Virus record (IMG/VR): IMGVR_UViG_3300045963_000139
Strand: one strand, 5' to 3'
Length of the DNA stretch: 60,289 bases
Origin: a virus
This document shows positions 3,460-58,957 of this stretch, piece after piece. The notes beneath the pieces are model-generated. The model was not told the DNA's origin. It did no database searches and saw nothing but the letters and a program-made list of their open reading frames with translations. The stretch's first letter is position 1. Each line of letters starts with the position of its first letter. A program made the position numbers and the translations under genes.

Positions 3460-3639
3460 ATGAGCCACGAATGGCCTGAAACTGTATTCATTGGAGACAC
3501 CATGAAGAAACCCACCCGACTGCCCACTCTGAAGCAAGCCCAGACCCGCGACGGACTGCGCACGGTGTTCTACTGGGCGCTGCTCTACATCATCGCAGTG
3601 GCCGTTGTGTTGGCGGACTGCATCGTATGGCGTCCGTAG
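3460..3639 (+). CDS. Hypothetical small membrane protein (59 aa), not in the ORF track
   Basis: Hand translation: MSHEWPETVFIGDTMKKPTRLPTLKQAQTRDGLRTVFYWALLYIIAVAVVLADCIVWRP*. RBS caaggag. C-terminal hydrophobic helix. Confidence 0.5.
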   Translation: MSHEWPETVFIGDTMKKPTRLPTLKQAQTRDGLRTVFYWALLYIIAVAVVLADCIVWRP

Positions 3640-3932
3640 CATCCGCAGTAGTCGGCTCTACGTTCAGGCTCACGGTTGGCAACATAGCAGTCGACCTGTT
3701 GGCTGTGACATCGTTCGATCGTTCACCACACGAAAACGTACGCGCAGAGTATGGTGGCTGCGAAGGGTGCATTGGACACACGGTACTGCACAACATACCG
3801 CCCGGACTGCGCCACTCTAGCATCTGCGCCCGCTTACCCCAAGGGTGCACATCAAATAACTCCATAATCATACGGGCCGAAGACTACGGCATTTACCTAT
3901 CCACATTCGCCTTGGGAGTAACAGATGATTAA
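3627..3932 (+). CDS. Hypothetical protein, weak call
   Basis: 101-aa ORF that fills the gap to the next gene. Weak RBS and unremarkable composition. Confidence 0.35.
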   Translation: MASVASAVVGSTFRLTVGNIAVDLLAVTSFDRSPHENVRAEYGGCEGCIGHTVLHNIPPGLRHSSICARLPQGCTSNNSIIIRAEDYGIYLSTFALGVTDD

Positions 3933-4173
3933 CAAAGAACTGCTCATGCGCTACCGCGCGTTGCACCAGCAGATCGACGGCATGGGCAAGGACTTGCTCA
4001 AGCTCATGCGCCACCCGGACAGCACACAGGAACAGATACTGCGTGGCCGGGACGCATACTTCCACTCATATGCCATGTGGGTGGAGGCGCGCATGATACT
4101 GCAGGAGAAACACCCACCACACCGCCGCTTCCTGCAGCCTGAGTTACCTTGGAACAAACCGGAGGACCTATGA
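3925..4173 (+). CDS. Hypothetical protein
   Basis: 82-aa ORF with RBS gggag 6 nt upstream. Confidence 0.7.
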   Translation: MINKELLMRYRALHQQIDGMGKDLLKLMRHPDSTQEQILRGRDAYFHSYAMWVEARMILQEKHPPHRRFLQPELPWNKPEDL

Positions 4174-4415
4174 ACATGCGCAAGGTGCGCCGCCTGCGGT
4201 CGCGGCGTTGGGACAGCGTGCACAAGAGCTGGAATGCCGTGCTGGATGGTGGGTCCATGTGGCCTATCCGTCACACCAAACCGTGCAAGTCGTATAGCGC
4301 ATGGTGCAGTGACTGCAACGCAGTCAGGTTCATATCGGACCACAACCGATTCCCTCACAACGTGGATGAGTTCTACGCGTTCGAGGATTACGTTCAAATA
4401 GGAGAGCAACCATGA
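4170..4415 (+). CDS. Hypothetical protein (Cys-containing)
   Basis: ORF 4149-4415 trimmed to ATG 4170. RBS ggagga and ATGA overlap with the upstream stop. Contains CKSYSAWCSDC. Confidence 0.7.
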   Translation: MNMRKVRRLRSRRWDSVHKSWNAVLDGGSMWPIRHTKPCKSYSAWCSDCNAVRFISDHNRFPHNVDEFYAFEDYVQIGEQP

Positions 4416-4654
4416 ACATCACAATGGAATCACCCGAAGAGCGCGAAGCGTTCGAGTCCATGCCAGCACACATGGAAGTCAAGCTCGAAGTGCGCGACCA
4501 GTACGGACGACAGACATACCACCCGGCCAACCAGAACGCTGACCTGTTTGCATCCCTTGCCGGGACCAAGACACTCACGCACCACGCCATCTCGGTCATC
4601 ATGCACCTTGGCTACACTGTGACGTACGTGCACAAAGCAGTGGGGATACCGTGA
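4412..4654 (+). CDS. Hypothetical protein
   Basis: ATGA overlap and RBS aggagag. Confidence 0.7.
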   Translation: MNITMESPEEREAFESMPAHMEVKLEVRDQYGRQTYHPANQNADLFASLAGTKTLTHHAISVIMHLGYTVTYVHKAVGIP

Positions 4655-4866
4655 GCACCCTCAAGTCGTGGACGCGTAGCACCACACACCCACACGCGGT
4701 GTTCGTGCTTCGTGAAGACCATGAGATCATTAATAGCGAATACGATGCCAAGGGATGCGCGCTGTGCGTATTCAGTGTTCGAGACAGCGGTTGCGCAACG
4801 CATAAATGTTCCGGTGGTGTGTGGCTCGATGAGACGCAAGCAGTCGTCCTGCGTTTGGAGTCATAG
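4651..4866 (+). CDS. Small Cys4 protein, paralogue family member 1
   Basis: GTGA overlap start. Motifs CALC...CATHKC..VWLDE...LRLES. Confidence 0.65.
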   Translation: MSTLKSWTRSTTHPHAVFVLREDHEIINSEYDAKGCALCVFSVRDSGCATHKCSGGVWLDETQAVVLRLES

Positions 4867-4867
4867 C

Positions 4868-5158
4868 ATGTGGCGGCGCATCACTGTCGATGACAAAGAG
4901 TACGCGCTTGTACCCACGACGCTGTTCATACACCACGAAGACTATGAGCTGGAGTGGGGTAGCCCGTGCCACCTGTGCCCGCACTTCGTGTTCAACCCGC
5001 AAACAAAGCACAGCAACTGCGCCTACCTGATACGTCCACTAATAAAAGACTTCAGTGACGCGCCGTGCCATGCAGACAATCGCCTCGTAGATAAACGCTC
5101 GGCTGTGTTCGTGCCTCTGCGACTAGCCGTCGAGCTGCGACTGGGGGGTGCACCATGA
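4868..5158 (+). CDS. Small Cys-rich protein, divergent family member 2
   Basis: ORF 4712-5158 trimmed to ATG 4868, after ggag. Motifs CHLC...C...C...LRLAVELRLGG. Confidence 0.6.
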   Translation: MWRRITVDDKEYALVPTTLFIHHEDYELEWGSPCHLCPHFVFNPQTKHSNCAYLIRPLIKDFSDAPCHADNRLVDKRSAVFVPLRLAVELRLGGAP

Positions 5159-5361
5159 ACCACGGCGACAAAGCACTGGTCAACGGTGAACCGTGCGTTC
5201 GAGTGGGTTTGCGATCGACCCGCGATTACGACTGGAATAACCCTTGCATAGAATGCCCACACTACGCAAGCGAAGCAGACGGTTGCAATTCGAGCTGCGG
5301 TAACTCATACGTGTGGGTGCGTGAGCATGTGTGGATAGCAATTCTGTTGGAGACACCATGA
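5155..5361 (+). CDS. Small Cys4 protein, family member 3
   Basis: ATGA overlap. Motifs EPCVRV, CIEC...CNSSC..YVWVRE...ILLE. Confidence 0.7.
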   Translation: MNHGDKALVNGEPCVRVGLRSTRDYDWNNPCIECPHYASEADGCNSSCGNSYVWVREHVWIAILLETP

Positions 5362-5573
5362 TCGAGCGACTACTTGTAAAGGACGAGCCATGCGTTCGTG
5401 CGAAGATGGGCAAAGGGTTTGCGACTGGAATCGGCTGCAACCACTGCCCGCTATATCAGCCAGTCATGGCTGGTAAGTCGTGCCACAACGCATGCGGCAC
5501 CGGATACCTGTTCATAAGGGAGCAAGCATACATCGAAGCACTGTTAGAAGAAGGCAACGACGCCAGCCTGTAA
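5358..5573 (+). CDS. Small Cys4 protein, family member 4
   Basis: ORF 5331-5573 trimmed to ATG 5358 (ATGA overlap, RBS ggaga). Motifs EPCVRA, CNHC...CHNAC..YLFIRE...ALLE. Confidence 0.7.
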   Translation: MIERLLVKDEPCVRAKMGKGFATGIGCNHCPLYQPVMAGKSCHNACGTGYLFIREQAYIEALLEEGNDASL

Positions 5574-5601
5574 TGGCGTCATATCACCCAAGGAAATCAA
5601 G

Positions 5602-6618
5602 ATGAAATACTCAGAAGTTAAACAATCGGTCGTCGCCCAGTTCAGCCAAGATCGCCCCGACGCCAACCAGACCGTGTTCGCTATCATGGGCCAGCCCGGT
5701 GGCGGCAAGTCAGCGTGTGCCCGTGACGCATTCAACGAGCTGGGCTTTATCCAAGGCGAGACACTGTTCGAGCTGACACTGTCCTCGCGTGACCCGGTCG
5801 ATCTGCTGGGCACACCTAACAACATCGGCGACTTCACCCGCTGGGTGCCGCCTGAGATGTTCTGGAAGATGCGCAAGGGCACAGGACGCGTAGCACTCTT
5901 GCTCGAAGAGTTCAGCGATGCACAACTGCCCATGTTCAACGCGGCATGCCGCATCATCTACGACCGCTTTGCCGGTGACATGGCTCTGTCCGACCATCTC
6001 CACATCGTGGCCACTGGCAACCGCACCGAAGACAAGTCTGGTGCCATGCGTGTTCCATCCAAGTTCGCAGGGCGCACGCGTCGTCTGGACTACACCGAGA
6101 ATCTGGACGAGTGGATTGCGTATGCACAGGACATGGACTTTCCCATCGAGCTGATTCAGTACCATCGCTTCATGAAGGGCGCAGCACTGGTCGACTTTGA
6201 CCCGAACCGCTACGCCAACGCAACGCCGCGTACATGGGAAGATGTTGCACGCATGCCGCGCACACTGCCAAAGCATATCGAGCGTGACAACGTGGCAGGC
6301 TCTGTTGGCCAAGGCCGTGCCATCGAGTACTGTACGTTCAAGGACCTGTTCGATGACTTGCCTAACATCGACACACTCATCGCCAACCCCACGACAGCGG
6401 CTATTCCCGCCAAGCTCGATGTGCGCTTTGCAGTCCTCGGAGCCCTTGCCCGGGCATCCACGGCGGACAACTTCGAGGCGGTGTGCACATACACCAACCG
6501 CTTCCAGCCTGAGATGCGCGTCATGTGCATCAAGGACGCGATCAAGGTCGAGCCCAAGATCAAGCGTACCCGTGCGTTCCAGACGTGGGCTGCCGAGAAT
6601 GCAGACGTTCTCATATAG
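5602..6618 (+). CDS. MoxR/CbbQ-type AAA+ ATPase
   Basis: Walker A GQPGGGKS, Walker B ALLLEEF, sensor-like VATGN. 338 aa. RBS aaggaa. Confidence 0.85.
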   Translation: MKYSEVKQSVVAQFSQDRPDANQTVFAIMGQPGGGKSACARDAFNELGFIQGETLFELTLSSRDPVDLLGTPNNIGDFTRWVPPEMFWKMRKGTGRVALLLEEFSDAQLPMFNAACRIIYDRFAGDMALSDHLHIVATGNRTEDKSGAMRVPSKFAGRTRRLDYTENLDEWIAYAQDMDFPIELIQYHRFMKGAALVDFDPNRYANATPRTWEDVARMPRTLPKHIERDNVAGSVGQGRAIEYCTFKDLFDDLPNIDTLIANPTTAAIPAKLDVRFAVLGALARASTADNFEAVCTYTNRFQPEMRVMCIKDAIKVEPKIKRTRAFQTWAAENADVLI

Positions 6619-6637
6619 AGGCAGGGCATACAAGCGT

Positions 6638-6856
6638 ATGCCTGAGCCCATCGCCTACACCAACGGCGACGATAACGAAGGGGAATTGATGTGCATGGGT
6701 TGCAGCTTCCGCAACGGCCACGAGACTATGCGCAGCCCGGGTTGTGCCGCCATCAAGGAAGCACTTGATGGTGACTGGTGTGGCTCGACCATCTGGATAC
6801 CTGACACCCCCGAAGGCTTGGCTGAATACATCGCACTCAAGCTGGAAGCATCATGA
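6638..6856 (+). CDS. Small Cys4 protein, family member 5
   Basis: ORF 6197-6856 trimmed to ATG 6638 after the ATPase stop. Motifs CMGC...C...WCGSTIWIPD...IALKLEAS. Confidence 0.6.
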   Translation: MPEPIAYTNGDDNEGELMCMGCSFRNGHETMRSPGCAAIKEALDGDWCGSTIWIPDTPEGLAEYIALKLEAS

Positions 6857-7062
6857 CCACATACATCCGCGTGCCAGAGATACACGACTGCGACGGGTGC
6901 GCAGTCAACCACAACGCCCAGACCGAGGGCGAAACATTCGAGGACCAGCGCTGCACCCAACTGAGCGACGCAATAGGAGGATGCTATACACACAAATGCA
7001 TTTGGATAGAAGACCACGAAGCCTCACGGCTTGCTTACATCACTCTGAAACTGGAGAACTGA
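6853..7062 (+). CDS. Small Cys4 protein, family member 6
   Basis: ATGA overlap. Motifs CDGC...CYTHKCIWIED...ITLKLEN. Confidence 0.7.
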   Translation: MTTYIRVPEIHDCDGCAVNHNAQTEGETFEDQRCTQLSDAIGGCYTHKCIWIEDHEASRLAYITLKLEN

Positions 7063-7063
7063 A

Positions 7064-7966
7064 ATGACAATGAACTGGACAAGCATCGACACATCCGTCG
7101 AACCCAAGATCGCGAAACTCAGCGACAAGGCCATCGAAGCCAAGCTGGTTATCCGCAGGACAACACTGGTCAAGCGCGACAACACGGCTACGGCCCTGCT
7201 GCGCAACTCAGACGCATCGGCCACCGCTTTTACCAAGCTGTTCCGCAAGGAAGGCACGCCGGTCTGGAAGCTCATGAAGGCAGTGTCTGAGGTATACGCC
7301 TACCACTGCGACAACACCGAGCGCTGCGGCGACAAGCGGCTGGTGCGCGGCGATAACATCTTCGAGTACACCAACGGGTTGCGCCAGTTGATCGCTGTGG
7401 TGGATACACACAAGACCCACGTACTGCCGGTTTACGACCAGTTGGTACTCGATGACATCGCCTACCGCAACTACGGCAAGGTGCACGGTGCAGCCGACCC
7501 GAGTCAGTATCCAAGCGCCATCGAGTTCGGCCAGCGCATCAGCTTTGACTTCCGCATGGTGCCACTGCCCAACGAGTCCCACCCGCTCTTTGACATGGAC
7601 GACGCCGATAAGGAAGCTGTGCGTGCCCAGTTCAGCGAGATGCTGGCGGATACCAACAACGCAACCATCGAGCGCATGTTGAAGCCCCTTGAGTACCTGA
7701 CCACACGGCTTGGCACCTACAAGGGCGAGAAGGGTGAGCGCTTCCATGCAAGCGTGCTGGAGAACGTGCTGGATGGATGCAAGCTGGCCCGCAAGCTGGC
7801 GATCGATGCCTCACCTGCCCTGCTGACTGAAATCGCTGAGATCGAGCGTATGGTCAAGGGCTACACGTTCAGCATCGACAGCATCAAGGGCGACGAAGAT
7901 GTGCGTGCAACGGCCAAGGCGAATCTGGAGGCGGCAACGAAGAAGTTGGCCGACTACTTTTCGTGA
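7064..7966 (+). CDS. Hypothetical 300-aa protein between the AAA ATPase and VWA genes
   Basis: Long clean ORF with the RBS ggagaa inside the upstream gene end. From memory, its length and context resemble the uncharacterised partner proteins of CobS/CobT-like pairs. Not verifiable here. Confidence 0.75.
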   Translation: MTMNWTSIDTSVEPKIAKLSDKAIEAKLVIRRTTLVKRDNTATALLRNSDASATAFTKLFRKEGTPVWKLMKAVSEVYAYHCDNTERCGDKRLVRGDNIFEYTNGLRQLIAVVDTHKTHVLPVYDQLVLDDIAYRNYGKVHGAADPSQYPSAIEFGQRISFDFRMVPLPNESHPLFDMDDADKEAVRAQFSEMLADTNNATIERMLKPLEYLTTRLGTYKGEKGERFHASVLENVLDGCKLARKLAIDASPALLTEIAEIERMVKGYTFSIDSIKGDEDVRATAKANLEAATKKLADYFS

Positions 7967-8154
7967 ATTGGGTGAAGTGCCCCAATGGCTGGCTACTGCG
8001 CGGTGACAAAGGCGGCACCATGGGCATGGTATTTCGGCACAGTAAGCGCGTCTGGATATGGGCTGCCGAGGGCTCACAACACCGCGTGCGTTACTGCAAG
8101 GACGCCAAAGCAGCACTGGTCGCACACTGGGTGGCAATCAAACTGGAGGCATGA
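7963..8154 (+). CDS. Hypothetical protein
   Basis: GTGA overlap start. 63 aa ending WVAIKLEA. Confidence 0.55.
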   Translation: MNWVKCPNGWLLRGDKGGTMGMVFRHSKRVWIWAAEGSQHRVRYCKDAKAALVAHWVAIKLEA

Positions 8155-8411
8155 TGATCTTTACCTGCGAGGAAGCACCCAACCCGTGGCTTAGCCACAC
8201 ACCGCGCCACCAGTACATCAAGGATGACAAGGGGTACATCATCGGCTCCGTGTACCCCGAGCCCCAAGGTGGGTGGACGTGGCAGAGCTGCCTGACCAAC
8301 GGACCCAAGGGCAACAGCGACTGGAGCAACCCGAGCATCAACCCGGAAGCTAACCGGATGGATGCCATCAACGCGGCGATAGCCGATTACATTGCAAGGA
8401 GAATGGAATGA
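8151..8411 (+). CDS. Hypothetical protein
   Basis: ORF 8058-8411 trimmed to ATG 8151 (RBS ggagg, ATGA overlap). Confidence 0.65.
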   Translation: MMIFTCEEAPNPWLSHTPRHQYIKDDKGYIIGSVYPEPQGGWTWQSCLTNGPKGNSDWSNPSINPEANRMDAINAAIADYIARRME

Positions 8412-8524
8412 GGGTCTACCTTAAACGACGACTCATCGTTGTCGAAACCAACGTGGGCTGGGCGCTGCCCTACTGGGTAAAGCGCCGTCGTTTCAACAAA
8501 GACATTACATGGGAGTTCACATGA
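8408..8524 (+). CDS. Micro-ORF (38 aa), basic, not in the ORF track
   Basis: Hand translation: MRVYLKRRLIVVETNVGWALPYWVKRRRFNKDITWEFT*. ATGA overlaps at both ends bridge the only apparent gap in this operon. Confidence 0.45.
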   Translation: MRVYLKRRLIVVETNVGWALPYWVKRRRFNKDITWEFT

Positions 8525-8730
8525 AACCTGAAGCATACGTTCAATTCGAGGGCACGTTCATGCTGCCCCTGCGCTTGGCCGAGGCCATAGCCGAGCTTGT
8601 GCCGCTGAAGGCTACCTACGAGTCGGGCCCGGGGTATGTCTACACGCTGGCACCCGACCAGAAGGTGTCGGTCAGCATGCTCAACAAGGACTACGTGGCG
8701 GGCATGATCGCCCAAGAGAAGATGAAGTGA
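8521..8730 (+). CDS. Hypothetical protein
   Basis: ORF 8509-8730 trimmed to ATG 8521 (RBS gggag). Confidence 0.6.
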   Translation: MKPEAYVQFEGTFMLPLRLAEAIAELVPLKATYESGPGYVYTLAPDQKVSVSMLNKDYVAGMIAQEKMK

Positions 8731-8975
8731 AACGCAAGCACCGACTGCAGCAAACCCGCAAGGATAGACGGCTGCGCTATGCAGGGCTCAAGGCTGAGTT
8801 TCTGCTGGCCGGTGGCCACAAGGATTGGTTGGTCCCGTTCAACCACGCATGGCTCAAAGAGCTAAGCGCCCAGATTCGCTCTATCGAAGAGGGCGACCCC
8901 CACTTTACTAAACCGAGGTATTACCGTGACCCAAGTCCTGCCAACCCACTCAACCAACGTACTCACCGCAAGTGA
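8727..8975 (+). CDS. Hypothetical basic protein
   Basis: GTGA overlap start. 82 aa. The 3' end overlaps the next gene by 50 nt. Confidence 0.45.
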   Translation: MKRKHRLQQTRKDRRLRYAGLKAEFLLAGGHKDWLVPFNHAWLKELSAQIRSIEEGDPHFTKPRYYRDPSPANPLNQRTHRK

Positions 8976-10083
8976 ACTCAAGGTCTTTGACTTCAACGTC
9001 AGCAAGGCCAAGACGCAGATCGTTCTGCAGCATCCGTTCTGGGCGGTCATCCTGCTCAAGCGCGAAGTCATATACGACTACAACGTGCCCACAGCCAGCA
9101 TCAACCGGCAAGGCCAGATCAAAGTCAACCCACGCTGGGCCAAAGACTTTACTGTGGGTAACCTGCAGTTTCTGCTGTGCCATGAGGTCGGTCACGAACT
9201 CTTCGACCACATCAACCGGCGCGGCCACCGCAAACCCGGGCGCTGGAATCGTGCAGGTGATGCAGTCATCAACGACACACTGATTCAATGCAAGGTCGGC
9301 GACTTTATCGACGGTGGCATCAACATGCCCGGGTCCATGGACCAGACCGCTGACCATATATACGACGGCTTCGGTGACGATGACGACGATAACCCGGGCG
9401 GTATCGGCGGTGACATCGACGAGTCCGGTGAGCCTCTGACTCCCGAGCAGATCGAAGAGCATACCCATGAGCTGCAGAACGAGATCGCTCAAGCAGCGCA
9501 GGCAGCCAAGATGCAGGGCAAGATGCCCAGTGTGCTGGAGAAGCTGGTGGCCCAGATACTTGCGGTCAAGACGCCATGGTATGAAATCCTTGAGCGCCAC
9601 ATGGTCAAGTTCATCCAGTCAGGCTACACGTGGGCTCGGCCGAACCGTCGCTACAGCGGCGCGGGTACTTACCTGCCCAGCACTGGTCAGGCGCAAACCA
9701 TGGGCACCATCGTGCTGGAAGTCGATGTGTCGGGCTCAGTGACCAAGAAGGAGATGAGCTACTACGCGGGCCACTTCGCGCGTATCGTGGAGATGTGCAA
9801 CCCCGAGCGCGTGCACGTCATCTACGTGGATACACGGGTGCAGAAGCACGTTGTGTTCGAGCAGGGCGAAGAGGTATCGCTGGAGTATGACGGCTGCGGC
9901 GGCACGGACATGACAGCGGGCTTTCGCTGGTGCGCGGCTGAGAACATCACCCCCGAGGTATTTGTCTGCCTGACCGATGGATACACCGGCTTTGGCACCG
10001 ACCCGGGCTACCCGGTTGTGTGGTGCATCAGCTCCGACAAAGTTGCATCGCACGGAGAGACAATTCACTTTGATATGGAATAA
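8926..10083 (+). CDS. Protein with an N-terminal putative metallopeptidase domain and a C-terminal VWA domain
   Basis: HExxH motif LLCHEVGHELFDH, acidic linker GDDDDDNPGGIGGDIDESGE, MIDAS-type motif VLEVDVSGSV. GTG start with RBS gaggt. Confidence 0.8.
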   Translation: MTQVLPTHSTNVLTASELKVFDFNVSKAKTQIVLQHPFWAVILLKREVIYDYNVPTASINRQGQIKVNPRWAKDFTVGNLQFLLCHEVGHELFDHINRRGHRKPGRWNRAGDAVINDTLIQCKVGDFIDGGINMPGSMDQTADHIYDGFGDDDDDNPGGIGGDIDESGEPLTPEQIEEHTHELQNEIAQAAQAAKMQGKMPSVLEKLVAQILAVKTPWYEILERHMVKFIQSGYTWARPNRRYSGAGTYLPSTGQAQTMGTIVLEVDVSGSVTKKEMSYYAGHFARIVEMCNPERVHVIYVDTRVQKHVVFEQGEEVSLEYDGCGGTDMTAGFRWCAAENITPEVFVCLTDGYTGFGTDPGYPVVWCISSDKVASHGETIHFDME

Positions 10084-10245
10084 CTGAGCCAAGGCGTCAT
10101 CTGAGCCCGCTCTTGATGGGTGCGTCTATGAGAGAGCGGGCCTTGCACCGTGGCCTTGGCAAGTGACTTTGCACGGGCAAGACCTGATACCACGCGGTGG
10201 GCGTGGAACGCATACCCCACCACATTTAACTCAAGGAGATATGAC

Positions 10246-10401
10246 ATGCAAACACTTGCATACGTAGGCATTTTTATTATGTACATAGTAATCGGCAATC
10301 TGTTGGGCGATCAAGCCACAGTACGCGAATGCCAGAAATACGGCAGCGCCGGTATGGTTGGCGGCGGTCGTATCGAGTGCAAAATCGTGGAGCCTAAGTA
10401 A
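10246..10401 (+). CDS. Small membrane protein (51 aa)
   Basis: ORF 10150-10401 trimmed to ATG 10246 behind a strong RBS, aaggaga. N-terminal hydrophobic helix LAYVGIFIMYIVIGNLL. Confidence 0.6.
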   Translation: MQTLAYVGIFIMYIVIGNLLGDQATVRECQKYGSAGMVGGGRIECKIVEPK

Positions 10402-10402
10402 C

Positions 10403-11137
10403 ATGGCATTCGGACTACAAACACGACACGCAAAGTACGCACGCAACTACGAAGAGTGCGCAGCGTTCTTTGACAAACCTCTAGGCACCCGGGCTAAGGC
10501 GTGGTACGAAAACATGCGCCCACTCGACAACCTGCGTAAGCCCCACATGTATGTTCTGCGCGGCAAGGATTACTATGACGTGGTGCTGTACTCCACATCG
10601 ATGGCACGCTACTACAAACCCGAGCAAATCGGCACCAGCGAGCAGCGTGAGGTCTGGTACAACGTGCATGGCAGCCAGAGTTCATCGAGCTTCCAGTGGG
10701 ATGTACTGGGCTTTGGTGCAGCCAACTACACCCGCAAGACTACCCACGGCAAAGAAGTTCTGATCGGCATGAACCCGGAGAAATCCGGCTTGGTGTTTCC
10801 GGTACAGCTACGCTTGGTAGACAACCTGTTGTATGTAGCCAAGTCACGCGACTGCCCAGCACGGTTAGGCGATATCACATCGCCCCAGCGTAAGGCCGAT
10901 CGCAAGGCATTCAAGCTGTGGCTGCGCCCGTTCGAGGCTATGTCCAAGGTCATGGAGCCCGGGGCTGTATATGTGAACTGGGACACTATACGCAACGCAT
11001 ATATAACTAATGAGTTGTTTGACCCGACCGGGTTGGCCTGCTATATTAAACAAAACGGCGCGAAGGCCGCAGTGGATAAGGTATATCCACTCGGTGACGT
11101 TCCTCAATATAACGAATCATTCAAGGAAATGCCATGA
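10403..11137 (+). CDS. Hypothetical protein (244 aa)
   Basis: ORF 10358-11137 trimmed to ATG 10403, just after the upstream stop. Confidence 0.7.
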   Translation: MAFGLQTRHAKYARNYEECAAFFDKPLGTRAKAWYENMRPLDNLRKPHMYVLRGKDYYDVVLYSTSMARYYKPEQIGTSEQREVWYNVHGSQSSSSFQWDVLGFGAANYTRKTTHGKEVLIGMNPEKSGLVFPVQLRLVDNLLYVAKSRDCPARLGDITSPQRKADRKAFKLWLRPFEAMSKVMEPGAVYVNWDTIRNAYITNELFDPTGLACYIKQNGAKAAVDKVYPLGDVPQYNESFKEMP

Positions 11138-23477: not shown

Positions 23478-26456
23478 GTGGACACCCTGACATTTCTCCA
23501 GACGATTCTGCCCGAGTCAGGATTCAAATTCGTGGTGCTGTTCAAGACCACGTTTCCTTACCCCATACACCGCAGCTTCCAAGACTTGGAAGATATGGTC
23601 GAGGCTATAGCCAACTACAACCGTGACCCGCAGGTTACTGCTGTGTACCACGCATGTTCCAGCTACAAGCTCCCATACGTCGAAGTGGAAAAGGGCGGCA
23701 GGCTCAAGAAGCAGTACCGCAAACCTAACAACTGGCGCTCGGCCAAGTCCTTCTGGCTTGACCTTGACTGCGGCCAAGAGAAGTTCGATGCGGGACAAGG
23801 CTACCTGACCAAGAAAGACGCTGCCGTGGCAGTGTCCAAGTTCGCCGTGGCTGTGGGCTGGCCTCTACCCATGCTGGTATCGAGCGGCAACGGCTTGCAC
23901 GCTTATTGGCCCCTTGTCAGTGCGGTGAACCACACAAGCTGGACCAAGTGCGCTGAACTGCTCAAGGCTGCTGCCAACCTGTATGGCTTGATCGCGGACC
24001 CCACGCGCACGGCAGACTTTGCATCCATCCTGCGACCGGCCGGTACAAGCAACCGCAAGGACCCATCAAACCCGCTCAAGGTCAAGGTCATCCGCGAGTG
24101 CGCGGCCCAAGACGCCAAGACCCTGTACACGGCCATCAAACTGTACGCAGAGACGCACGATGTGGTGATGCCCAAGGCCTCCACGGACGCGCTCGGCGAC
24201 ATGCCAGATTACCTTAAGGGCGAAGCGGTTTCCACTGATCTAGCTGCGCATGCTCCATACGCGAACGCACCTGTGGATGCTGACATCATGGCGAACAAGT
24301 GCCGCCAAGTCGGTGCGGTGCGTAACACAGCCGGGGACGTACCCTACGATCACTGGCGTTATGTAGTCGGGCTACTGACGTTCTGCGAAGATGGGCGCTC
24401 CAAGGCTCAAGACTGGTCCAGCGAACGCGCCAGCACTGGTCACGACAACACCGACTGGGAAACGCGCTACGACTCATGGGAGGGCGGCCCATCCCTGTGC
24501 ACGTCCATCGCCAAATGCAGCCCCAACGGTTGCGTAGGCTGTGAGTTCAAGGACAAGGTAAACACGCCTCTGGTACTTGGTCGCGTCATTCCCATCACAG
24601 TGGAACAGGAAGTCGAAGTGGCCACGGCCACCGAGGCGGTCGAAGTTGTCACTATACCGGCGTACCCACCGGGCTATCAATGGAACAACGGCCTGCTCTC
24701 GCGCATCCTCCCAGACAAGGACGGCATCAACCAAGTCCACAGCTTCACGCCCCACCAGTTCTACCCCACCATGCGTATTCGCGGCGAAGATGGGGCCTAC
24801 AAAATCGGTCTGCGCATGCACCTGCATAACAACCGAATCCGCGATTTTCAAATGCCTTTCGAGGCCATGGCGTCATCCACTGACATCCTTAAATCTTTGG
24901 CGAAATATGAACTCATGCAAACAAATCACCCCAATGCAGGGACGCACCTTACTGCGTACCTTCGAGACTCACTGGAACAGCTTAAGCGGCGTGTTGAAGA
25001 AACAAATACGCTCACGTCTTTCGGTTGGAAGGACGAGATGCGCGGCTTCCTCATCGGTGACCGCTATTACGCAACTGATGGCTCAGTCAAACGAGTTTTA
25101 CTGGGAGGTTACGCGGCACAAAAGCAAGCTGCTCTTACCGCTCCACAGGGCACCTTGGCTGGATACGCAAAGCCGCTCAATTACGTCTATGCCCGCGATG
25201 GCATGGAAAGCCTACAGTACGCTATTTGCTCGGGCTGGGGCTCAATCCTCAACCCCTTCTGTGAAGAGCTGTACTGCGGGCTCCTGCTGGCAATCACGGG
25301 CGGCGATTCCGGCAAGGGTAAGTCGACGGTCGCTTACGCCTCGGTTTACGCGTTTGGAGACTCCAATGCCATGGCGCTCAAGTCGGATGATGCAGGCACA
25401 CGTAACGCGCTTTGGGCGACGGTGGGTGCTTTCAACAATCTCCCGCTCATATTCGATGAGCTTACGGGAGTTGAGGCTGAATGGTTCTCCAACTTCACGT
25501 ACACCCTTTCGCTCGGCGAAGAGCGCGCACGGCTTCAGTCGACTGGCTCGGGTGTAAAGTTTGCCAACCAATCCACGTGGCGCATGAGTCCCTTCGGCAC
25601 GGCCAACAAGGACTTGCACGGGGTGCTGGCAGCCACACAGGCTAACTCCCAAGCGGAAGCCGTTCGCATGGTCCAGATTCACGTGGACAGCTACCCAATC
25701 CCCAAGCTGGAAGAAACCGAAGTCCAGACAGCGCTGGCCCAGATGAAAGCCAATCGCGGTACAGCAGGCGCGGCGTTAATTCAGTACGCTGTCACACATA
25801 CCGAGCAGATTTTTCAGCGTATTCAGGCCAAGGTATCCGAGTTTGTGAAGCACGTGCCGGGGACCAAGTACCGCTTCTACCGCAGCCATGCCGCATGTAC
25901 GCTGGTCGCCGCCGAGATCGCCTTCGAGCTTGGGTTCTCCGAGTTCAGCGTGGAAAAGCTCAACGAGTTTGCGATCGGCCTTATGCAAAAACTAGCTAAA
26001 GAAATCACAGTTAATAACACAGTGTCATCAGACGACGCGTTCAACCGGCTGGTGGCATCGCTCACTGGCGGCATCGTGGTCACGTCAGAGTACCGGGATT
26101 CGCGCAGCTTGTCTGGGGTGGAGAGCCCACGCAACACCCTCAAGGGACCAATTGTTGGGCGCTACGTGCTTGGTACCAAGCATGAGCCAGCGTTCGCCGG
26201 TCGGCTGTTTCTCTGCCAGAAGGCAATGCGTGAATGGTGCATGAAGAACCGCACGGACTTCCAGAACGTGCTGGACCATCTGAGACAGGCAGGTGCCCTT
26301 ATAACGGAAGACGAGCGGGTTACGTTGACGCGCGGTACGGACCTTCCACGGGTGCAACAACGCTGCGTGGTGATCGATCTGCCACAGCTTGAAGCCCATG
26401 GGCCGGTGCTGGTCGTCGACAACACGGCTTTGCCGGGAGCCCAGACTGGTGTATAG
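23478..26456 (+). CDS. Primase-polymerase (AEP) fused to an SF3-type helicase
   Basis: AEP motifs FWLDLDCG and SSGNGLHAYW. Walker A GGDSGKGKST, Walker B LPLIFDELTG. 992 aa. GTG start behind aaggggg. Confidence 0.85.
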   Translation: MDTLTFLQTILPESGFKFVVLFKTTFPYPIHRSFQDLEDMVEAIANYNRDPQVTAVYHACSSYKLPYVEVEKGGRLKKQYRKPNNWRSAKSFWLDLDCGQEKFDAGQGYLTKKDAAVAVSKFAVAVGWPLPMLVSSGNGLHAYWPLVSAVNHTSWTKCAELLKAAANLYGLIADPTRTADFASILRPAGTSNRKDPSNPLKVKVIRECAAQDAKTLYTAIKLYAETHDVVMPKASTDALGDMPDYLKGEAVSTDLAAHAPYANAPVDADIMANKCRQVGAVRNTAGDVPYDHWRYVVGLLTFCEDGRSKAQDWSSERASTGHDNTDWETRYDSWEGGPSLCTSIAKCSPNGCVGCEFKDKVNTPLVLGRVIPITVEQEVEVATATEAVEVVTIPAYPPGYQWNNGLLSRILPDKDGINQVHSFTPHQFYPTMRIRGEDGAYKIGLRMHLHNNRIRDFQMPFEAMASSTDILKSLAKYELMQTNHPNAGTHLTAYLRDSLEQLKRRVEETNTLTSFGWKDEMRGFLIGDRYYATDGSVKRVLLGGYAAQKQAALTAPQGTLAGYAKPLNYVYARDGMESLQYAICSGWGSILNPFCEELYCGLLLAITGGDSGKGKSTVAYASVYAFGDSNAMALKSDDAGTRNALWATVGAFNNLPLIFDELTGVEAEWFSNFTYTLSLGEERARLQSTGSGVKFANQSTWRMSPFGTANKDLHGVLAATQANSQAEAVRMVQIHVDSYPIPKLEETEVQTALAQMKANRGTAGAALIQYAVTHTEQIFQRIQAKVSEFVKHVPGTKYRFYRSHAACTLVAAEIAFELGFSEFSVEKLNEFAIGLMQKLAKEITVNNTVSSDDAFNRLVASLTGGIVVTSEYRDSRSLSGVESPRNTLKGPIVGRYVLGTKHEPAFAGRLFLCQKAMREWCMKNRTDFQNVLDHLRQAGALITEDERVTLTRGTDLPRVQQRCVVIDLPQLEAHGPVLVVDNTALPGAQTGV

Positions 26457-26505
26457 TGCGCGCTGACAGGTGCCTCCCTCCTGTCTCCTTGAGTGATAGC
26501 GATTC

Positions 26506-26533
26506 GCCCCCGGCTTACCCCGGGGGCTTTTTT
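26506..26533 (+). terminator. Rho-independent terminator at the convergence point of the two arms
   Basis: gcccccgg-(cttacc)-ccgggggc hairpin followed by ttttttc. The T-tract overlaps the stop codon of the leftward giant gene. Confidence 0.8.
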
Positions 26534-29500
26534 CATTTTGGAAGCTGATCGATCGCGCGACCGGTTTGCTTTGGCTGGTACTGCACACCGCCCGGGGTCG
26601 TGAACATCTGACGCTTGAGCTGTTCTATCGGCGTCTTCAGGATGTCGGCCAGAGGGGTCGGCCGGTAGCCGCGCTCGACCATTTCCTTGCGTAGATCGTT
26701 CATCTCCTTGATCGCCGTGGACGTGCCCGCTGAACCGCTGCGCGCGTCGTTGTTGTAGCGCTCCTTCAGAATCTCCAGACGGTTCTTGAAGTCTTCCGTG
26801 GACTTAATCATGGCACCGGTTTCCGACTGCATCATGGCCTTGCTGGATGGCTCGAACCCGAAGGCTTCCAGCAGCGCTTCGCCAGCGTTGATGTCCATCA
26901 GCTTGTCGTTCTTGGTGTTGGTTACACCGCCAAGTGTTGGGGCAAAGCCGCCTTCACGCGCACCCTTCATGATGTTGGCAATACCTTGGGGCATCAACCC
27001 TTCGAGGCCCTTGTAATAGTTGCCCACGAACATGTGGTGCAGCGACTGCGCCGCGCGGCCAACGAGCCCGCCGAACGGGCCTGCGGTAACTTGGCCAATG
27101 GCATCTTGCACGCTCTTGCGATCTGTCGGGTCCACGTCGGTGTAAGGCGCAATACCCAGCATGTCGCCGTAGCCGACCTTCTTGGACAGGTCCACACCCA
27201 GCAGTCCGGGCACGCCGCGAAGCAGCAGTTGCGCAATGTGGCGATCACCAACGGCCTTTTCGATCTTGGTTTCCCAGTCTTGGCCATCCACGCCGGTCAG
27301 CCACTTCTGCAGGGTCTGAGACGCGGCGCTGAACGTACCGAACCCGGGCATTCCCAGCGCGCCGCCCAGCACACCGACGTGGGCCAAGGTGTACACCAAG
27401 TGGCGTACAGCGATCGAGCGCTCGGCCGGGTCAGCGTTCTTCAGGTTGCCCATCATTTTGACCATCTGAGTGAGCTGCACCAACTGGAACTTGCGGAACT
27501 GCAATGCCACCTTGCCAAAGCCGTTGTTGAACACCCGGGGCGCATTGGCGCGGCTGTGGTCACCGTGAGTCTCAGCCACCACGTCACCCGCGTAGTGCAG
27601 AGCGCGCTCAGCATCTCCATGCTTGGCAAACTCCAGCCGGTAAGCGGCTGCAGCGCTGGCCAACCGGTTCAAAGATTCCATCTTCAACGAGGCTTGGGCA
27701 ACGCGATCGGCTGCCGCTTGCGCTGCGCGAGTCGCCATGTTCTTGGGCCGCAGCTCCATGGAGCCGTACTCAGTGTTCATGCCGATGTCCAGACGACCCA
27801 GCTCCAGCAAACGCTGCATGGGTGCCCGCACGTCAGCAGGCATGTCTGACACCTTCAGGGTGTCGAGCAAACCAGTTTTGCCAAGGATGTCACCGATCTC
27901 TTTGTATGCCTTGAAGAACTCACTGGTTGCCTTACCGTACCCATGGTGCGCTTGCAAGTAGGGCAGCGTCATCGTCCACGGCTGCATCAAGTTGCCAATG
28001 AAGTGCGCTGGGCTTGTTGCGATCTGCCAGAGGGCAGTTGCCTTGGTGATCTTGTTGGCCCAAGGGGTTGGCACCGCGTTGACACTACCTTCGTGGCGTA
28101 GCATGAACTCGTCGTATATGTGCAACTTTGTCGTGCGATCTTCACCCTCACCGCTGTCAGCCTGCTTGTAGGCCTTCTTCAACTGGGTAAGCATGGCATC
28201 GTTGTGCGTGATGCCAGCGATAAAGTGCGCGTCACCCTTGGCTTGCTGCTTGAACGAGCCCACCATATCCATGGTGCCGTGAACACCCATGCGGCGCATC
28301 TCGGCTTTGCGGGACGACGACTGACTCAGCGCATCCAACCACATATTGGTCAGCAAGCGGGCCGAGGTTTTGTACTTCATCCGGTCAGCTTCAGCCGGGG
28401 CTTCTTGGCTTAGCTTTTCCAGTTGGTGACGCAGCCGCGACATACCGGCCAGCACACCCTTGCCGCCGTTCAGTTCGGTTTGCCAGTCTTCCTTTGGCTT
28501 GTAGTAGGTGTGGTCCTTCGTGGCGGGAAAGCCCGCATCGCGCATGTTCTGACGCAACGCCTTGGACTCTTGCTCACTCTGGGCTTCCGACACAAGGTAG
28601 TGCTGCGGGTCCGTCACCAGATCGTACAGCGCCTTCTTGTCTTCGCGGGTTGCGCCGTCGCGGCTTGCACGCTCTTCAGCACGCAGGTAAGCGTCCGACT
28701 TGCCCACGACAACCCAGTCACCGTGGCGGCGCGCGGGCACGTAGGGTTTACCCTCGCCAATCTGCATGAGGGTGTTGTACTTCTTCATGAAGCCGTTCTT
28801 CTCGGCCAGAATCTCTTCGCGCTCTGCGCCGGTCGTACCCTTGAGCATGTCGTCGTACAGCTCGGCAGCCTTTTTCTCGATGACGGCTTTCTTCTCTTTG
28901 AGAATTTCATCGCCGTGGGCGAACATGGCCTTGGCCACCGACTGGGCTCGATCGGATAGCTGGTCGAACATCACCTTGGCTTTGCCGGTCGCCTTGGGTC
29001 CGTAGCCCCACTCACCGTTCAGGGTGCTGTGCTGCAGGAACGCGCTCAAACCCGTCTTCTCTTCCTGTGTGAACTTGCGCACCGGCTCGATCGCATTGAA
29101 CGCCATCTTCTGGAAGTGACCGGCCAGCGCATCACGGGCTTCGCGTAGCGTGTCGTAGTGCTCCAGTGCAGTGAGCCCCTTGGCCACGCCTCGCGCCACC
29201 AGATCGCGGGTAAATACCACGTGGTTCAGCGCATCCCCGGCCCAGCGGTTCAGACGGTCGGTGATCGTGCGCGCGGGCTCTTGCAGATGGTCGGGCAGCC
29301 GGGAGATGTTAGCGGCAACGGTTTTGCCAAACTTCACGCCATGCAAGTCTTGCTCGACGTCGCCGCCCGGATGGGATGCAACACGCAGGATGTTCCTGTC
29401 ATTGAAAATGATGGTGTTGTGCGTACGCTCGCGCTTGACTATTTGGTAATCGCTCGGCTTAGCTTGGTTAAGCTCTTCCAAACGCATTCTTGCGTCAGAG

Positions 29501-57898: not shown

Positions 57899-58290
57899 TA
57901 TTTTGTCGTCGCAGCGTATTCGTCACCTTGGGCGTAACCAGAACCACCGGGAGCTTGGTCTGGACCACCGGGGAACGCGCCGTTGAGCGCGTTGCCGCCC
58001 TTTTTTACACCGCCCAAACCCACTGCTTTGCCATCACCGGCAGAAGCTGCGAACGAGTCGCCTTGGTTGTAGCCGCTCGCTGCGTTGGCTGCGCCGGTCG
58101 TGGGGCCAAAATGACCGCCTACCATGGCATTACCACCGGACTTGGGACTACCGGCCATCTGGGGGCTGGAGTCGCCGCGTGCGTGCACGCCAGCGATCTG
58201 GTTGCCTTGGTTGTAGCCGCCAGCGGTAGCTGTGCCGCCCATGCCGCCGACAGAACCGAGGGTCTTGTACTGTTGAGAGTTAGTTTCCAT
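57898..58290 (-). CDS. Gly-rich small protein with three GY(N/A)QG(N/D) repeats
   Basis: ORF trimmed to ATG 58290 behind ggaga. The stop overlaps the portal start (TAATG). Confidence 0.6.
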   Translation of the reverse strand: METNSQQYKTLGSVGGMGGTATAGGYNQGNQIAGVHARGDSSPQMAGSPKSGGNAMVGGHFGPTTGAANAASGYNQGDSFAASAGDGKAVGLGGVKKGGNALNGAFPGGPDQAPGGSGYAQGDEYAATTK

Positions 58291-58336
58291 AAATTTCTCC
58301 AAAAGACCCACGGCGGGTCGGTGACACTATACCAGA

Positions 58337-58957
58337 TCAGGATGGCATTGCGGGGGGTTTGCTACCGAACGGGTTGATGTGGGGGTTGGGCTTTTTCGGA
58401 AACGAGTTTGTCATACCTTTGGCCTGCATGGCGTCGTGCGCCTCTTCGCGCTTGGAGCCCTCGGCACCGAAGGGGTTGCCCGCTGGTTCTTTGTCTTTTG
58501 CAGAGTTCTCGAATCGGTTGGGCGCGCGACCAACAACACCGCCGGTGGCGTACCCGGTCTGCATGGAGTGTGGGCTGACATCAGCGGGATTCGACTGGCC
58601 ACGGTTGATGGATGTCACCATGGAACCGATGGGGTCCACGGATGAGTTTGCCCAGTCCACGGCGTCCTCCCGGCTTTTGCCGGTCAGGGCCTTACCAAAC
58701 TCGGCAGGGACCGGTGTGGTATCGCGGGGCATGGTGGATGGCTTACTGTATGGGGAGGGGGGAGGTGTAGAGTTACCGGTAGCGGATGGGTTAATTTTGC
58801 CGCGACCTCCGCCGATGCCCGGATAACCGCCGGATGATGTACTAGGAGCGGCAGGAGAGTCGTCTGCCTGCGCGGTGGTGTAACTCTTGCCGCCAAACTC
58901 AAAAGTTTTAACGCCGCTTGCGCGGGCTGCCTTAAATGCGTCTCCGAAAGCTGACAT
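58337..58957 (-). CDS. G/P/S-rich low-complexity protein
   Basis: ORF 58337-59050 trimmed to ATG 58957 (RBS ggag), 22 nt after the terL stop. N-terminus MSAFGDAFKAARASGVKTFEFGGKSYTT. Confidence 0.6.
   Translation of the reverse strand: MSAFGDAFKAARASGVKTFEFGGKSYTTAQADDSPAAPSTSSGGYPGIGGGRGKINPSATGNSTPPPSPYSKPSTMPRDTTPVPAEFGKALTGKSREDAVDWANSSVDPIGSMVTSINRGQSNPADVSPHSMQTGYATGGVVGRAPNRFENSAKDKEPAGNPFGAEGSKREEAHDAMQAKGMTNSFPKKPNPHINPFGSKPPAMPS

Follow-up and report, generated by a model that had tools for sequence, protein, structure and literature searches.

What does a phage gain from carrying a MoxR-type ATPase together with a metallopeptidase? The question is raised by a 60,289-nt viral sequence, IMG/VR record IMGVR_UViG_3300045963_000139 (hereafter the window, by which we mean that whole stretch of DNA), in which three large open reading frames (ORFs) lie on the + strand: one for an ATPase (A), one for a 300-residue protein (D), and one for a protein that combines an HExxH-type peptidase domain with a von Willebrand factor A (VWA) domain bearing a metal-ion-dependent adhesion site, or MIDAS (V). 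A sequence-only reading of this region had described A and V as a classic ATPase–VWA pairing, interspersed with D and several small ORFs, and had suggested a multi-component machine rather than a stray metabolic gene. The three ORFs were found where that reading had put them, and all the motifs it quoted (GQPGGGKS, LLLEEF, HEVGH, DVSGS, and an acidic linker) are present, along with the rest of the MIDAS. Here, we show that A, D, and V constitute a conserved, co-inherited three-gene module of phages and conjugative plasmids, and we propose, more tentatively, that it may be an ATP-driven machine that remodels and cuts host proteins.

The case for a module is based on gene neighborhoods, which we surveyed from two directions. 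In a forward census, 185,579 species-representative genomes were scanned with an alignment of V, yielding 80 loci, or 87 once phage and plasmid loci had been added. A adjoins V in 80 of the 87, so that the two genes form a true AAA+/VWA pair; A and V occur in 69 loci, all three genes in 11, V alone in six, and A alone in one, and in several of the V-alone loci the contig or flank is not long enough to accommodate a partner. The reverse census started from D: IMG/VR was scanned with a sub-alignment of D-like proteins only, which are ~20–25% identical to the D of the window, and 80 loci were retrieved. A, D, and V are all present and co-directional in 73 of these viral loci; each of the remaining seven is cut off by the end of its contig just where the absent gene would be expected. 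Every one of the 84 testable loci thereby links D to A and V. The 84 trios come from phages, plasmids, and metagenome-assembled genomes (MAGs), are all co-directional, and have a median span of 3.4 kb. The prevailing gene order is A-D-V (61 of 84), followed by D-A-V (20) and A-V-D (3), and both intergenic gaps are shorter than 150 nt in 34 trios; the window, with 445 nt between A and D and 959 nt between D and V, represents the loose end of this range. The possibility that the three genes would not co-occur in other genomes, which the sequence-only reading had named as a refutation, thus fails decisively, and the 300-residue protein it had cast as a partner is a real third member. In a tree of 160 V sequences, the D-linked proteins make up three near-pure clades, and the ternary form is therefore an evolutionarily coherent branch.

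The trio and the pair differ in their reach. Among cultured phages, a detectable D was found only in Synechococcus phage MinM2, where the order is A-D-V and the D homologue is annotated as DUF3150, and in two Planktothrix phages. Plasmids carry D-like genes as well: PLSDB contains 62 such plasmids, the majority from Burkholderiales, and 29 of the 62 have a conjugative typing. In B. cenocepacia pBcn842-1, A, D, and V form a compact operon in that order, flanked by a PRTRC cassette on one side and the VirB type IV secretion genes on the other. The neighbors of the trio include an orphan cytosine methyltransferase, a DUF4942 protein, and an addiction toxin in a plasmid from Simplicispira, and a DUF3991/Toprim primase, ParB, and a zeta toxin in one from Rhodovastum. 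The A-V pair is found in N4-like, rV5-like, and jumbo phages, in cyanophages, in the ~60-kb uncultivated clade to which the window belongs, and in many bacteria, with matches in 528–613 cultured phage records. The bacterial A-V cassettes have no conserved neighbors, metabolic ones included (the sole recurrent feature, SF1 helicase domains, accounts for six of 148 flanking ORFs), and therefore behave as self-contained units. Two contigs carry more than one copy: an Acidobacteria MAG contig has an A-V pair beside an A-D-V trio (L082; 2228–4612 and 6029–9197), and an Arcobacteraceae MAG has two tandem A-V pairs (L046; 4033–6256 and 6889–9140). The ATPase gene is also carried by 16 records labeled as Campylobacter jejuni phages (among them MG065659, MG065635, MG065655, and MG065662; ‘C5, C12, C2, A142...’). 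The six ‘Campylobacter phage’ genes listed match that of E. coli rV5-like phages at 97–98% identity, which suggests that these records are mislabeled or contaminated and inflate the apparent host range of the pair.

Of the three proteins, V is the most readily assigned. On its domain content, it can be identified securely as the fusion of a putative metallopeptidase (DUF2201_N) with a VWA-like domain (DUF2201), as in COG3864. From the N to the C terminus, it comprises a zincin-like metallopeptidase domain, an acidic linker rich in glycine and aspartate, and a VWA domain with a complete MIDAS. The match to DUF2201_N has an E-value of 6e-36 (124.9 bits, against a gathering cut-off of 23.2) and that to the DUF2201 VWA-like domain one of 1.6e-19 (70.6 bits, cut-off 26.4); many homologues also match Peptidase_M48. 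In an alignment spanning the window, N4 gp25, cyanophage MinM2, the Rhodovastum plasmid homologue, and metagenomic relatives, the invariant positions include H86, E87, H90, and H95 of the peptidase domain, an RPxRR motif, and D267, S269, S271, T327, and D351 of the MIDAS. A search against PDB chain sequences returned merely HExxH-type matches to stromelysin, at E ~0.3. V also matches PHROG 1314 at 3e-78; the name of this group, ‘HNH endonuclease’, is, judging from a domain content that gives it no support, a misnomer. The same label is common in GenBank phage records, for example, for N4 gp25 and in the Vibrio phage D4xx series. As to where V begins, its GTG start at 8926 is overlapped by 50 nt by a small ORF (8727–8975), and in its relatives conservation sets in at about residue 14 (LTASELK); the true start thus lies close to 8926, if not with certainty.

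A is likely an AAA+ ATPase of the MoxR/AAA_5 clade, a placement reached transitively via its homologues and its predicted structure. It matches PHROG 1297 (‘ATPase’) at 3e-59 and consists of an AAA+ core followed by a family-specific helical C-terminal half with a TPRTW motif. No Pfam AAA family, including AAA_5 and AAA_3, is matched at E≤0.01, and relaxing the threshold to E≤1 yields a single match, to AAA_22 at 0.22. Searching PDB chain sequences gave nothing meaningful for A itself and weak NtrC/FleQ matches for a profile of 25 homologues (best 5e-3). A hidden Markov model (HMM) of the family recognizes the protein of the window at 5e-98 and the ATPases encoded beside V in bacteria and plasmids with E-values from 1e-80 to 1e-133, and seven of nine scanned partner ATPases match AAA_5, all above the 22-bit gathering cut-off (23–35 bits), some of those scanned also matching AAA_3, Mg_chelatase, or bpMoxR. 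An AlphaFold2 model of A has a predicted local distance difference test score (pLDDT) of 79, and in a fold search its top PDB match is NorQ (9qhd_A, 8.5e-5; also 9qh4), with CbbQ2 (6l1q, 7.3e-4) lower in the ranking. There are 57 PDB matches at E≤1e-3, and the 50 listed are all AAA+ ATPases; RFC, MCM, ClpB, and NtrC score within a factor of ten, and template modeling (TM) scores are low, at 0.2–0.4. The label ‘MoxR-type’ given to A in the sequence-only reading is thus carried by homologues and predicted structure, whereas the protein of the window itself lacks a Pfam AAA match.

The catalytic motifs of A are well conserved. In the sensor-1 and arginine region, T138–N140, E143–A148, R158, and T159–R161 are invariant among the 25 homologues. 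The DPVDLLGT motif opens a hairpin (strands 71–73 and 80–82 of the model) predicted to sit between core strands β2 and β3, at the place of the helix-2 insert in MoxR-clade AAA+ proteins, and a ‘DPxDLxG’ sequence aligns likewise in bas54_0063, a homologue from Escherichia phage Bas54 that is discussed below. The E-E of Walker B is invariant in the 25 relatives of the window clade; the N4 and Bas54 homologues retain D-E. The homologue of A in phage N4 is gp24 (tblastn, 5e-14), and V is homologous to N4 gp25 and to bas54_0055.

D was the least tractable of the three by direct search: it has no Pfam or PHROG match and no DUF3150 match even at E≤1 (gathering score 24.9 bits), and its 20 close relatives yield one weak DUF3150 match, at 0.036. 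With a profile of 21 D relatives, 4009 cluster representatives were recovered at E≤1e-3, and when 51 diverse members were taken from the matches at E<1e-25, six matched DUF3150 of Pfam (best 6.8e-7), the only family to recur. D is also linked by tblastn to the DUF3150 protein of MinM2 (2e-8). The AlphaFold2 model of D (pLDDT 84) has a disordered N-terminus (residues 1–17), a small β-sheet, and long helical bundles. Foldseek, one of the checks recommended in the sequence-only reading, gave for D nothing in the PDB beyond generic helical bundles (BRIL fusions, spectrin; E≥0.13), but among the predicted viral structures of BFVD it found phage DUF3150 proteins at E 2e-12 with TM-scores of 0.71–0.73. 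From profile and predicted fold, D is a divergent member of the DUF3150 superfamily. It shares the fold and a distant sequence relationship with the plasmid and phage proteins of Pfam DUF3150 (PF11348), but falls below every Pfam threshold and belongs to a sub-clade that has lost the DUF3150 hallmark T-L-P-W-x-D-x-G-x-R-L-L-P; the window reads NTERCGDKRLV. No functional account of DUF3150 was found in the literature, in which one mention notes linkage to ‘cobT/vWF’ genes on enterobacterial plasmids (10.1101/285403).

The gene layout of the window provides a first indication of when the module would act. The trio belongs to the pre-replicative + strand arm, in which it precedes the genes for DNA polymerase, helicase, and primase; structural genes are on the opposite strand. 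The identical V protein is on record from a contig of 60,364 bp, and the window is accordingly one metagenomic contig in nearly its full length. Along the + strand from 3461 to 10775, neither promoter-like nor terminator-like signals rise above chance, and co-transcription in an early operon, as the sequence-only reading had it, is therefore merely plausible from the layout. The region has no megablast match in 50,697 phage records, so the phage appears to be without a close cultured relative. In its portal, it shares 35% identity with the Rhizobium phages of the RHph_TM27A/TM29 group, and in RHph_TM29, the nearest cultured relative, A and V are separated by three small ORFs. No hidden D homologue was found among the ORFs of the N4 or RHph_TM29 loci.

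A phenotype is available for homologues of two of the three proteins. In a transposon-sequencing (HIDEN-SEQ) preprint on phage Bas54, a Vequintavirus (Escherichia phage MaxBurger), the ‘MoxR ATPase’ bas54_0063 was found to be specifically required against DS-28, a two-gene defense system of the clinical E. coli isolate CFE311, and its deletion sensitizes Bas54 to cloned DS-28 (10.1101/2025.11.20.689424). The DS-n naming follows the DefensePredictor numbering of validated systems, and DS-28 is absent from the main text on DefensePredictor. bas54_0063 (57234–58418) aligns with A over 266 residues (BLASTP, 1e-12), is recognized by the family HMM at 2.6e-64, and has in common with A the Walker, DPxDLxG, GNR, and TPRxW motifs. 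The same phage encodes a ‘putative metallopeptidase’, bas54_0055, with the DUF2201_N and DUF2201 domains of V (Pfam on the Bas59 orthologue; HMM 4.5e-62). The two Bas54 genes belong to the same two families as A and V and, like those of the window, are dispersed rather than adjacent; they are the sole member of the family pair with a phenotype. Unlike in the window, they lie on opposite strands, 3.6 kb apart, their products are longer (394 aa for bas54_0063 and 486 aa for bas54_0055), and there is no D gene. A 325-aa ‘anti-sigma factor’ beside the Bas54/Bas59 peptidase was considered as a hidden D homologue and ruled out (best E 0.49 over this protein and the N4 and RHph_TM29 ORFs).

The supplement of that preprint (10.1101/2025.11.20.689424) shows the two Bas54 genes to be non-essential on K-12, with 60 of 64 and 81 of 86 TA sites hit. 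When K-12 is compared with the ‘311’ sample by resampling, bas54_0063 is depleted with a log2 fold change of −7.23 (adjusted p 0) and bas54_0055 with one of −2.20 (adjusted p 0.009), the latter not being discussed in the text of the preprint. In supplement file 9 (Data S6/S7), the sheet ‘resampling_K-12_vs_CFE303’ holds the command line and data of 311, and the same rows recur further down the file; swapped or duplicated labels are a possibility. In this single dataset, the Bas54 homologues of A and V share a host-specific requirement. The statement in the sequence-only reading that the role of such pairs in phage infection was not established must accordingly be amended, because the pair corresponds to the known N4 gp24/gp25 genes, for whose jumbo-phage counterparts a proposal exists, and because a homologous ATPase has an anti-defense phenotype in one preprint; as far as unproven function goes, it holds.

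How, then, might the proteins work together? In cells, NorD, CbbO, and ViaA dock as VWA adaptors on their MoxR partners NorQ, CbbQ, and RavA. A and V share with NorQ/NorD, CbbQ/CbbO, and RavA/ViaA the logic of an AAA+ ring combined with a MIDAS-bearing VWA adaptor, whereas the cellular adaptors have neither a peptidase domain nor a DUF3150 partner, their substrates are known metalloenzymes, and sequence similarity is marginal. The general logic laid out for MoxR-vWA systems is that the MIDAS captures a peptide, which the AAA+ ATPase remodels (Kaur et al. 2020, PMC7159879). The same work describes ternary vWA-MoxR conflict systems of multicellular bacteria with other third subunits (VMAP, FtsH, iSTAND, and β-propeller types; PMC7159879). 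A-D-V resembles these in having three components, one of them a system-specific third protein, and a peptidase is sometimes fused to the vWA domain there, too; it differs in that its third protein is DUF3150-like instead of VMAP, in being found on phages and plasmids rather than chromosomes, and in having no effector arrays.

The A-V pair itself is already known, albeit uncharacterized. N4 gp24 (AAA ATPase) and gp25 (vWFA) are two of the 14 N4-like core genes, are middle-transcribed, and are listed with the function ‘unknown’ (PMC2784036; PMC4193335). They are homologous to A and V, gp25 having the same DUF2201_N and DUF2201 architecture with invariant HExxH and MIDAS, and in both N4 and the window the pair occupies a pre-replicative gene block on the same strand. 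The differences are that the N4 genes are adjacent, that no DUF3150-like gene occurs in their 11-kb locus, that identity is limited to 22–25%, and that the phage of the window is not N4-like. In group 2.2 jumbo phages, a MoxR AAA+/metallopeptidase-vWA pair has been proposed to act in virion assembly and proteolytic processing (Iyer et al. 2021, PMC7824862), by analogy with the p618/p892 tail-development chaperones of Acidianus two-tailed virus (PMC7824862). This is the same domain pairing as in A and V, with no third component noted there; the jumbo phages K64-1 and a PA5oct-like phage are among our ATPase matches. Literature on DUF2201, COG3864, and Schitoviridae together with von Willebrand yielded nothing functional, a paper on polyvalent proteins makes no mention of the module, and NCBIfam has no model for A, D, or V. 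To the best of our knowledge, what is new here, in that we found no prior description, is the obligate three-gene branch on mobile elements, with its DUF3150-like subunit, and the host-specific fitness signal of both partners of the pair in published transposon data.

We propose that the trio is an ATP-driven protein-remodeling and -cutting machine for counter-defense or host takeover, an interpretation to which we assign a probability of roughly 45%. Incoming phages and conjugative plasmids would make it before or during replication, its targets would be host proteins, and its most probable purpose would be to neutralize bacterial immune proteins or other host factors. A would form an AAA+ ring, as is typical of its family, on which V would dock as an adaptor in the manner of NorD, CbbO, and ViaA. 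The MIDAS of V, whose site is intact, would then grip an acidic residue or an extended peptide of the target, and ATP hydrolysis would unfold or pry the target, as suggested by other MoxR-VWA pairs. The exposed chain would presumably be cleaved by V's own HExxH zincin domain, in which the motif is likewise intact. D would be a dedicated third subunit of the phage and plasmid versions; our guess is that target recognition or regulation is its most likely task, and it may, more speculatively still, offer one of its invariant aspartates (D39 or D90) to the MIDAS of V.

A machine of this kind is favored by the obligate A-D-V linkage and by Walker, arginine, HExxH, and MIDAS motifs that are intact across very distant members. 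For the proposed role speak the pre-replicative position, the status of the N4 homologues as middle and core genes, and carriage by elements that have to establish themselves in a new cell; among homologues, the Bas54 genes are dispensable on the laboratory host and conditionally needed on a defended one. Several points weigh against the proposal. The A-V core occurs in all N4-like phages and is common in the chromosomes of Actinobacteria and Campylobacterales, a distribution that general housekeeping or remodeling fits at least as well. The experimental link comes from one preprint and a ~25% identical homologue, in a phage that has no D and carries the two genes on opposite strands; there, the depletion of the V homologue is far weaker than that of the ATPase and comes from the complete clinical isolate rather than from cloned DS-28, and the sheet with the figures bears the label CFE303, in conflict with a command line that points to the 311 sample. 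The assignment of the window's A to MoxR is only transitive, with RFC, MCM, and ClpB scoring nearly as well as NorQ, and the target as well as the protease and ATPase activities are predictions for every member. A bolder version of the proposal, which we regard as doubtful, holds that the trio is an undescribed class of broad counter-immunity unfoldase-protease that dismantles and cleaves assembled defense complexes, with the DUF3150-like subunit as an exchangeable target adaptor; such a broad machine would explain the core status of the pair in whole phage families.

Four other explanations were considered. The one that survives best, unlikely as we judge it, is that of a conflict or defense cassette serving the element itself through superinfection exclusion or the killing of competitors, with D as sensor or effector. 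It would account for the combination of MoxR, vWA, and a system-specific third protein, with a peptidase sometimes fused to the vWA domain as in the ternary systems (PMC7159879), for the variable neighborhoods of the bacterial A-V cassettes, and for the two copies on some contigs (L046, L082). However, PADLOC-DB v2 has no match for A, D, or V, with the bacterial ATPase partners giving weak generic AAA matches, and no Pfam VMAP domain is matched by D or by any of 71 relatives. Strict core status in a whole virulent phage family would be unusual for an exclusion gene, and the Bas54 phenotype is a loss of phage fitness on a defended host, in other words counter-defense.

We also consider it improbable that the pair is a virion-assembly chaperone and processing protease, which would fold or assemble structural proteins that the zincin domain trims. 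This is what has been put forward for the same domain pair in jumbo phages (Iyer et al. 2021, PMC7824862), and the N4-like core genes include the pair alongside structural genes. In the window, RHph_TM29, and MinM2, however, the genes belong to the early or replication arm and lie well away from the structural module, which occupies the opposite strand, and the A-V module is also found on conjugative plasmids and bacterial chromosomes, which make no virions. Moreover, the Bas54 genes tolerate insertions on K-12 at nearly all TA sites, and the Bas54 pair is therefore not needed to build infectious particles.

Tolerance of insertions on K-12 likewise argues against an accessory role in replication or nucleoid remodeling, in which the module would strip or cleave DNA-bound host or phage proteins to set up replication, and which we rate as quite improbable. 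Its appeal derives from constant adjacency to replication genes (polymerase, helicase, and primase in the window, the primase of MinM2, and DUF3991/Toprim and ParB on the Rhodovastum plasmid), from the SF1 helicase domains that are the sole recurrent neighbor of the bacterial cassettes, and from the expression of N4 gp24/gp25 as middle genes together with replication functions. This is support from neighborhood only, and A, D, and V have no nucleic-acid-binding domain and are acidic to near-neutral (pI 5.2–6.3). Finally, an auxiliary metabolic module akin to the CobS/CobT chelatases, inserting metal into a cofactor or enzyme, is very improbable: the AAA+ ATPase, VWA domain, and acidic linker do resemble CobS/CobT and BchI/BchD, and plasmid homologues are loosely named ‘cobT’ or cobalamin genes (10.1101/285403), but V has a zincin peptidase domain and matches the DUF2201 families alone, with no CobT or BchD domain, no CobN/BchH-like large substrate subunit is encoded near any locus examined, and no metabolic genes recur beside the cassette, all of which bears out the earlier view that this is no stray metabolic gene.

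A further element of the sequence-only reading was that small zinc-ribbon proteins encoded between the large genes belong to the machine. That reading counted seven small ORFs between A and V; we find six plausible ones on the + strand (Table 1), which do include the two Cys4 paralogues it had noted. They are kept in the closest relatives (L003 and L004), and farther out one Cys4 ORF has a weak match on the viral contig L126. Because they are conserved just in these closest relatives and 34 of the 84 trios have no room for them, the small ORFs are lineage-specific inserts outside the module, and their proposed part in the machine is not borne out. The Cys4 ORFs belong to a family of small Cys-rich (CxxC...C...C) proteins encoded on the + strand at 4712–5158, 5155–5361, 5331–5573, 6638–6856, and 6853–7062. 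Most of these end in a tail of the form hydrophobic-L-(K/L)-L-E (LKLEAS, LKLEN, LLETP, LLEEG). Paralogy is detected between the ORFs at 5155 and 5331 (4e-8) and weakly between those at 6638 and 6853 (2e-4), and no member has a Pfam or PHROG match.

Table 1. Positions of the trio, its predicted functional motifs, and the intervening small ORFs in the window (gene starts and lengths from the ORF list).
Feature	Position	Strand	Remarks
A	5602-6618	+	338 aa, ATG start
A, Walker A GQPGGGKS	5689-5712	+	aa 30-37; G30, P32-S37 invariant in 25 homologues
A, DPVDLLGT motif	5791-5814	+	D64-D67, G70 invariant (25 homologues); opens β-hairpin
A, Walker B LLLEEF	5896-5913	+	aa 99-104; E-E replaces usual D-E
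A, sensor-1 region ATGNRTED and GRTRR arginine cluster	6010-6084	+	candidate arginine finger
Cys4 ORF 1	6638-6856	+	matches L003/L004 (1e-10), weakly viral contig L126 (7e-05, 9e-04)
Cys4 ORF 2	6853-7062	+	matches window alone
D	7064-7966	+	300 aa, ATG start
Small ORF	7963-8154	+	lineage-specific; without Cys4 pattern, ends IKLEA
Small ORF	8151-8411	+	lineage-specific
Small ORF	8509-8730	+	lineage-specific
Small ORF	8727-8975	+	lineage-specific; overlaps V start
V	8926-10083	+	385 aa, GTG start
V, HEVGH zinc-binding/catalytic motif	9181-9195	+	aa 86-90; invariant
V, H95, five residues past HEVGH	9208-9210	+	invariant
V, acidic, glycine-rich linker GDDDDDNPGGIGGDIDESGE	9373-9432	+	aa 150-169; length varies among homologues (alignment columns 190-240)
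V, MIDAS DxSxS, DVSGS	9724-9738	+	aa 267-271
V, MIDAS T327 (GGTD)	9898-9909	+	invariant
V, MIDAS D351 (LTDG)	9970-9981	+	invariant

Beyond the trio, the AT skew of the window changes from ~+0.13 to ~−0.15 near 26000–26600, where the genes also switch orientation, which places the convergence of the replication arm (+ strand) and the structural arm (− strand) near 26.5 kb. The minus-strand arm opens with a giant ORF of 2673 aa (26533–34554, −), of which the C-terminal ~600 residues match cultured phages at 22–25% identity and the N-terminal 1900 residues have no match. The matching proteins are annotated as DarB-like antirestriction protein, DNA methylase, or transglycosylase, and the C-terminal third resembles DarB-like/methylase proteins of ~60-kb phages. 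The product is likely a large virion protein, ejected or internal; virion RNA polymerase is absent among its listed matches. This ORF was what first raised the suspicion of an N4-like (Schitoviridae) identity for the phage, which was ruled out by the DarB-like nature of the ORF and by the RHph_TM27A/TM29-type portal. The 259-aa ORF downstream of V (10358–11137) was also compared with a similarly placed 257-aa ORF of RHph_TM29 and found not to be homologous (E=17).

The A-V pair is among the most widely conserved phage gene pairs of unassigned function. An obligate third subunit in a large mobile-element branch of the family and a host-specific fitness phenotype shared by the two Bas54 homologues, with the ATPase tied to a defined defense system, make this old question directly testable, and tractable models are at hand in Bas54 and N4 in E. 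coli and, for the complete trio, in the conjugative plasmids of Burkholderia. If the proposal is correct and immune proteins are degraded, the module would represent a new enzymatic mode of counter-defense, with a bearing on the host range of phages used in therapy and on the spread of plasmids.

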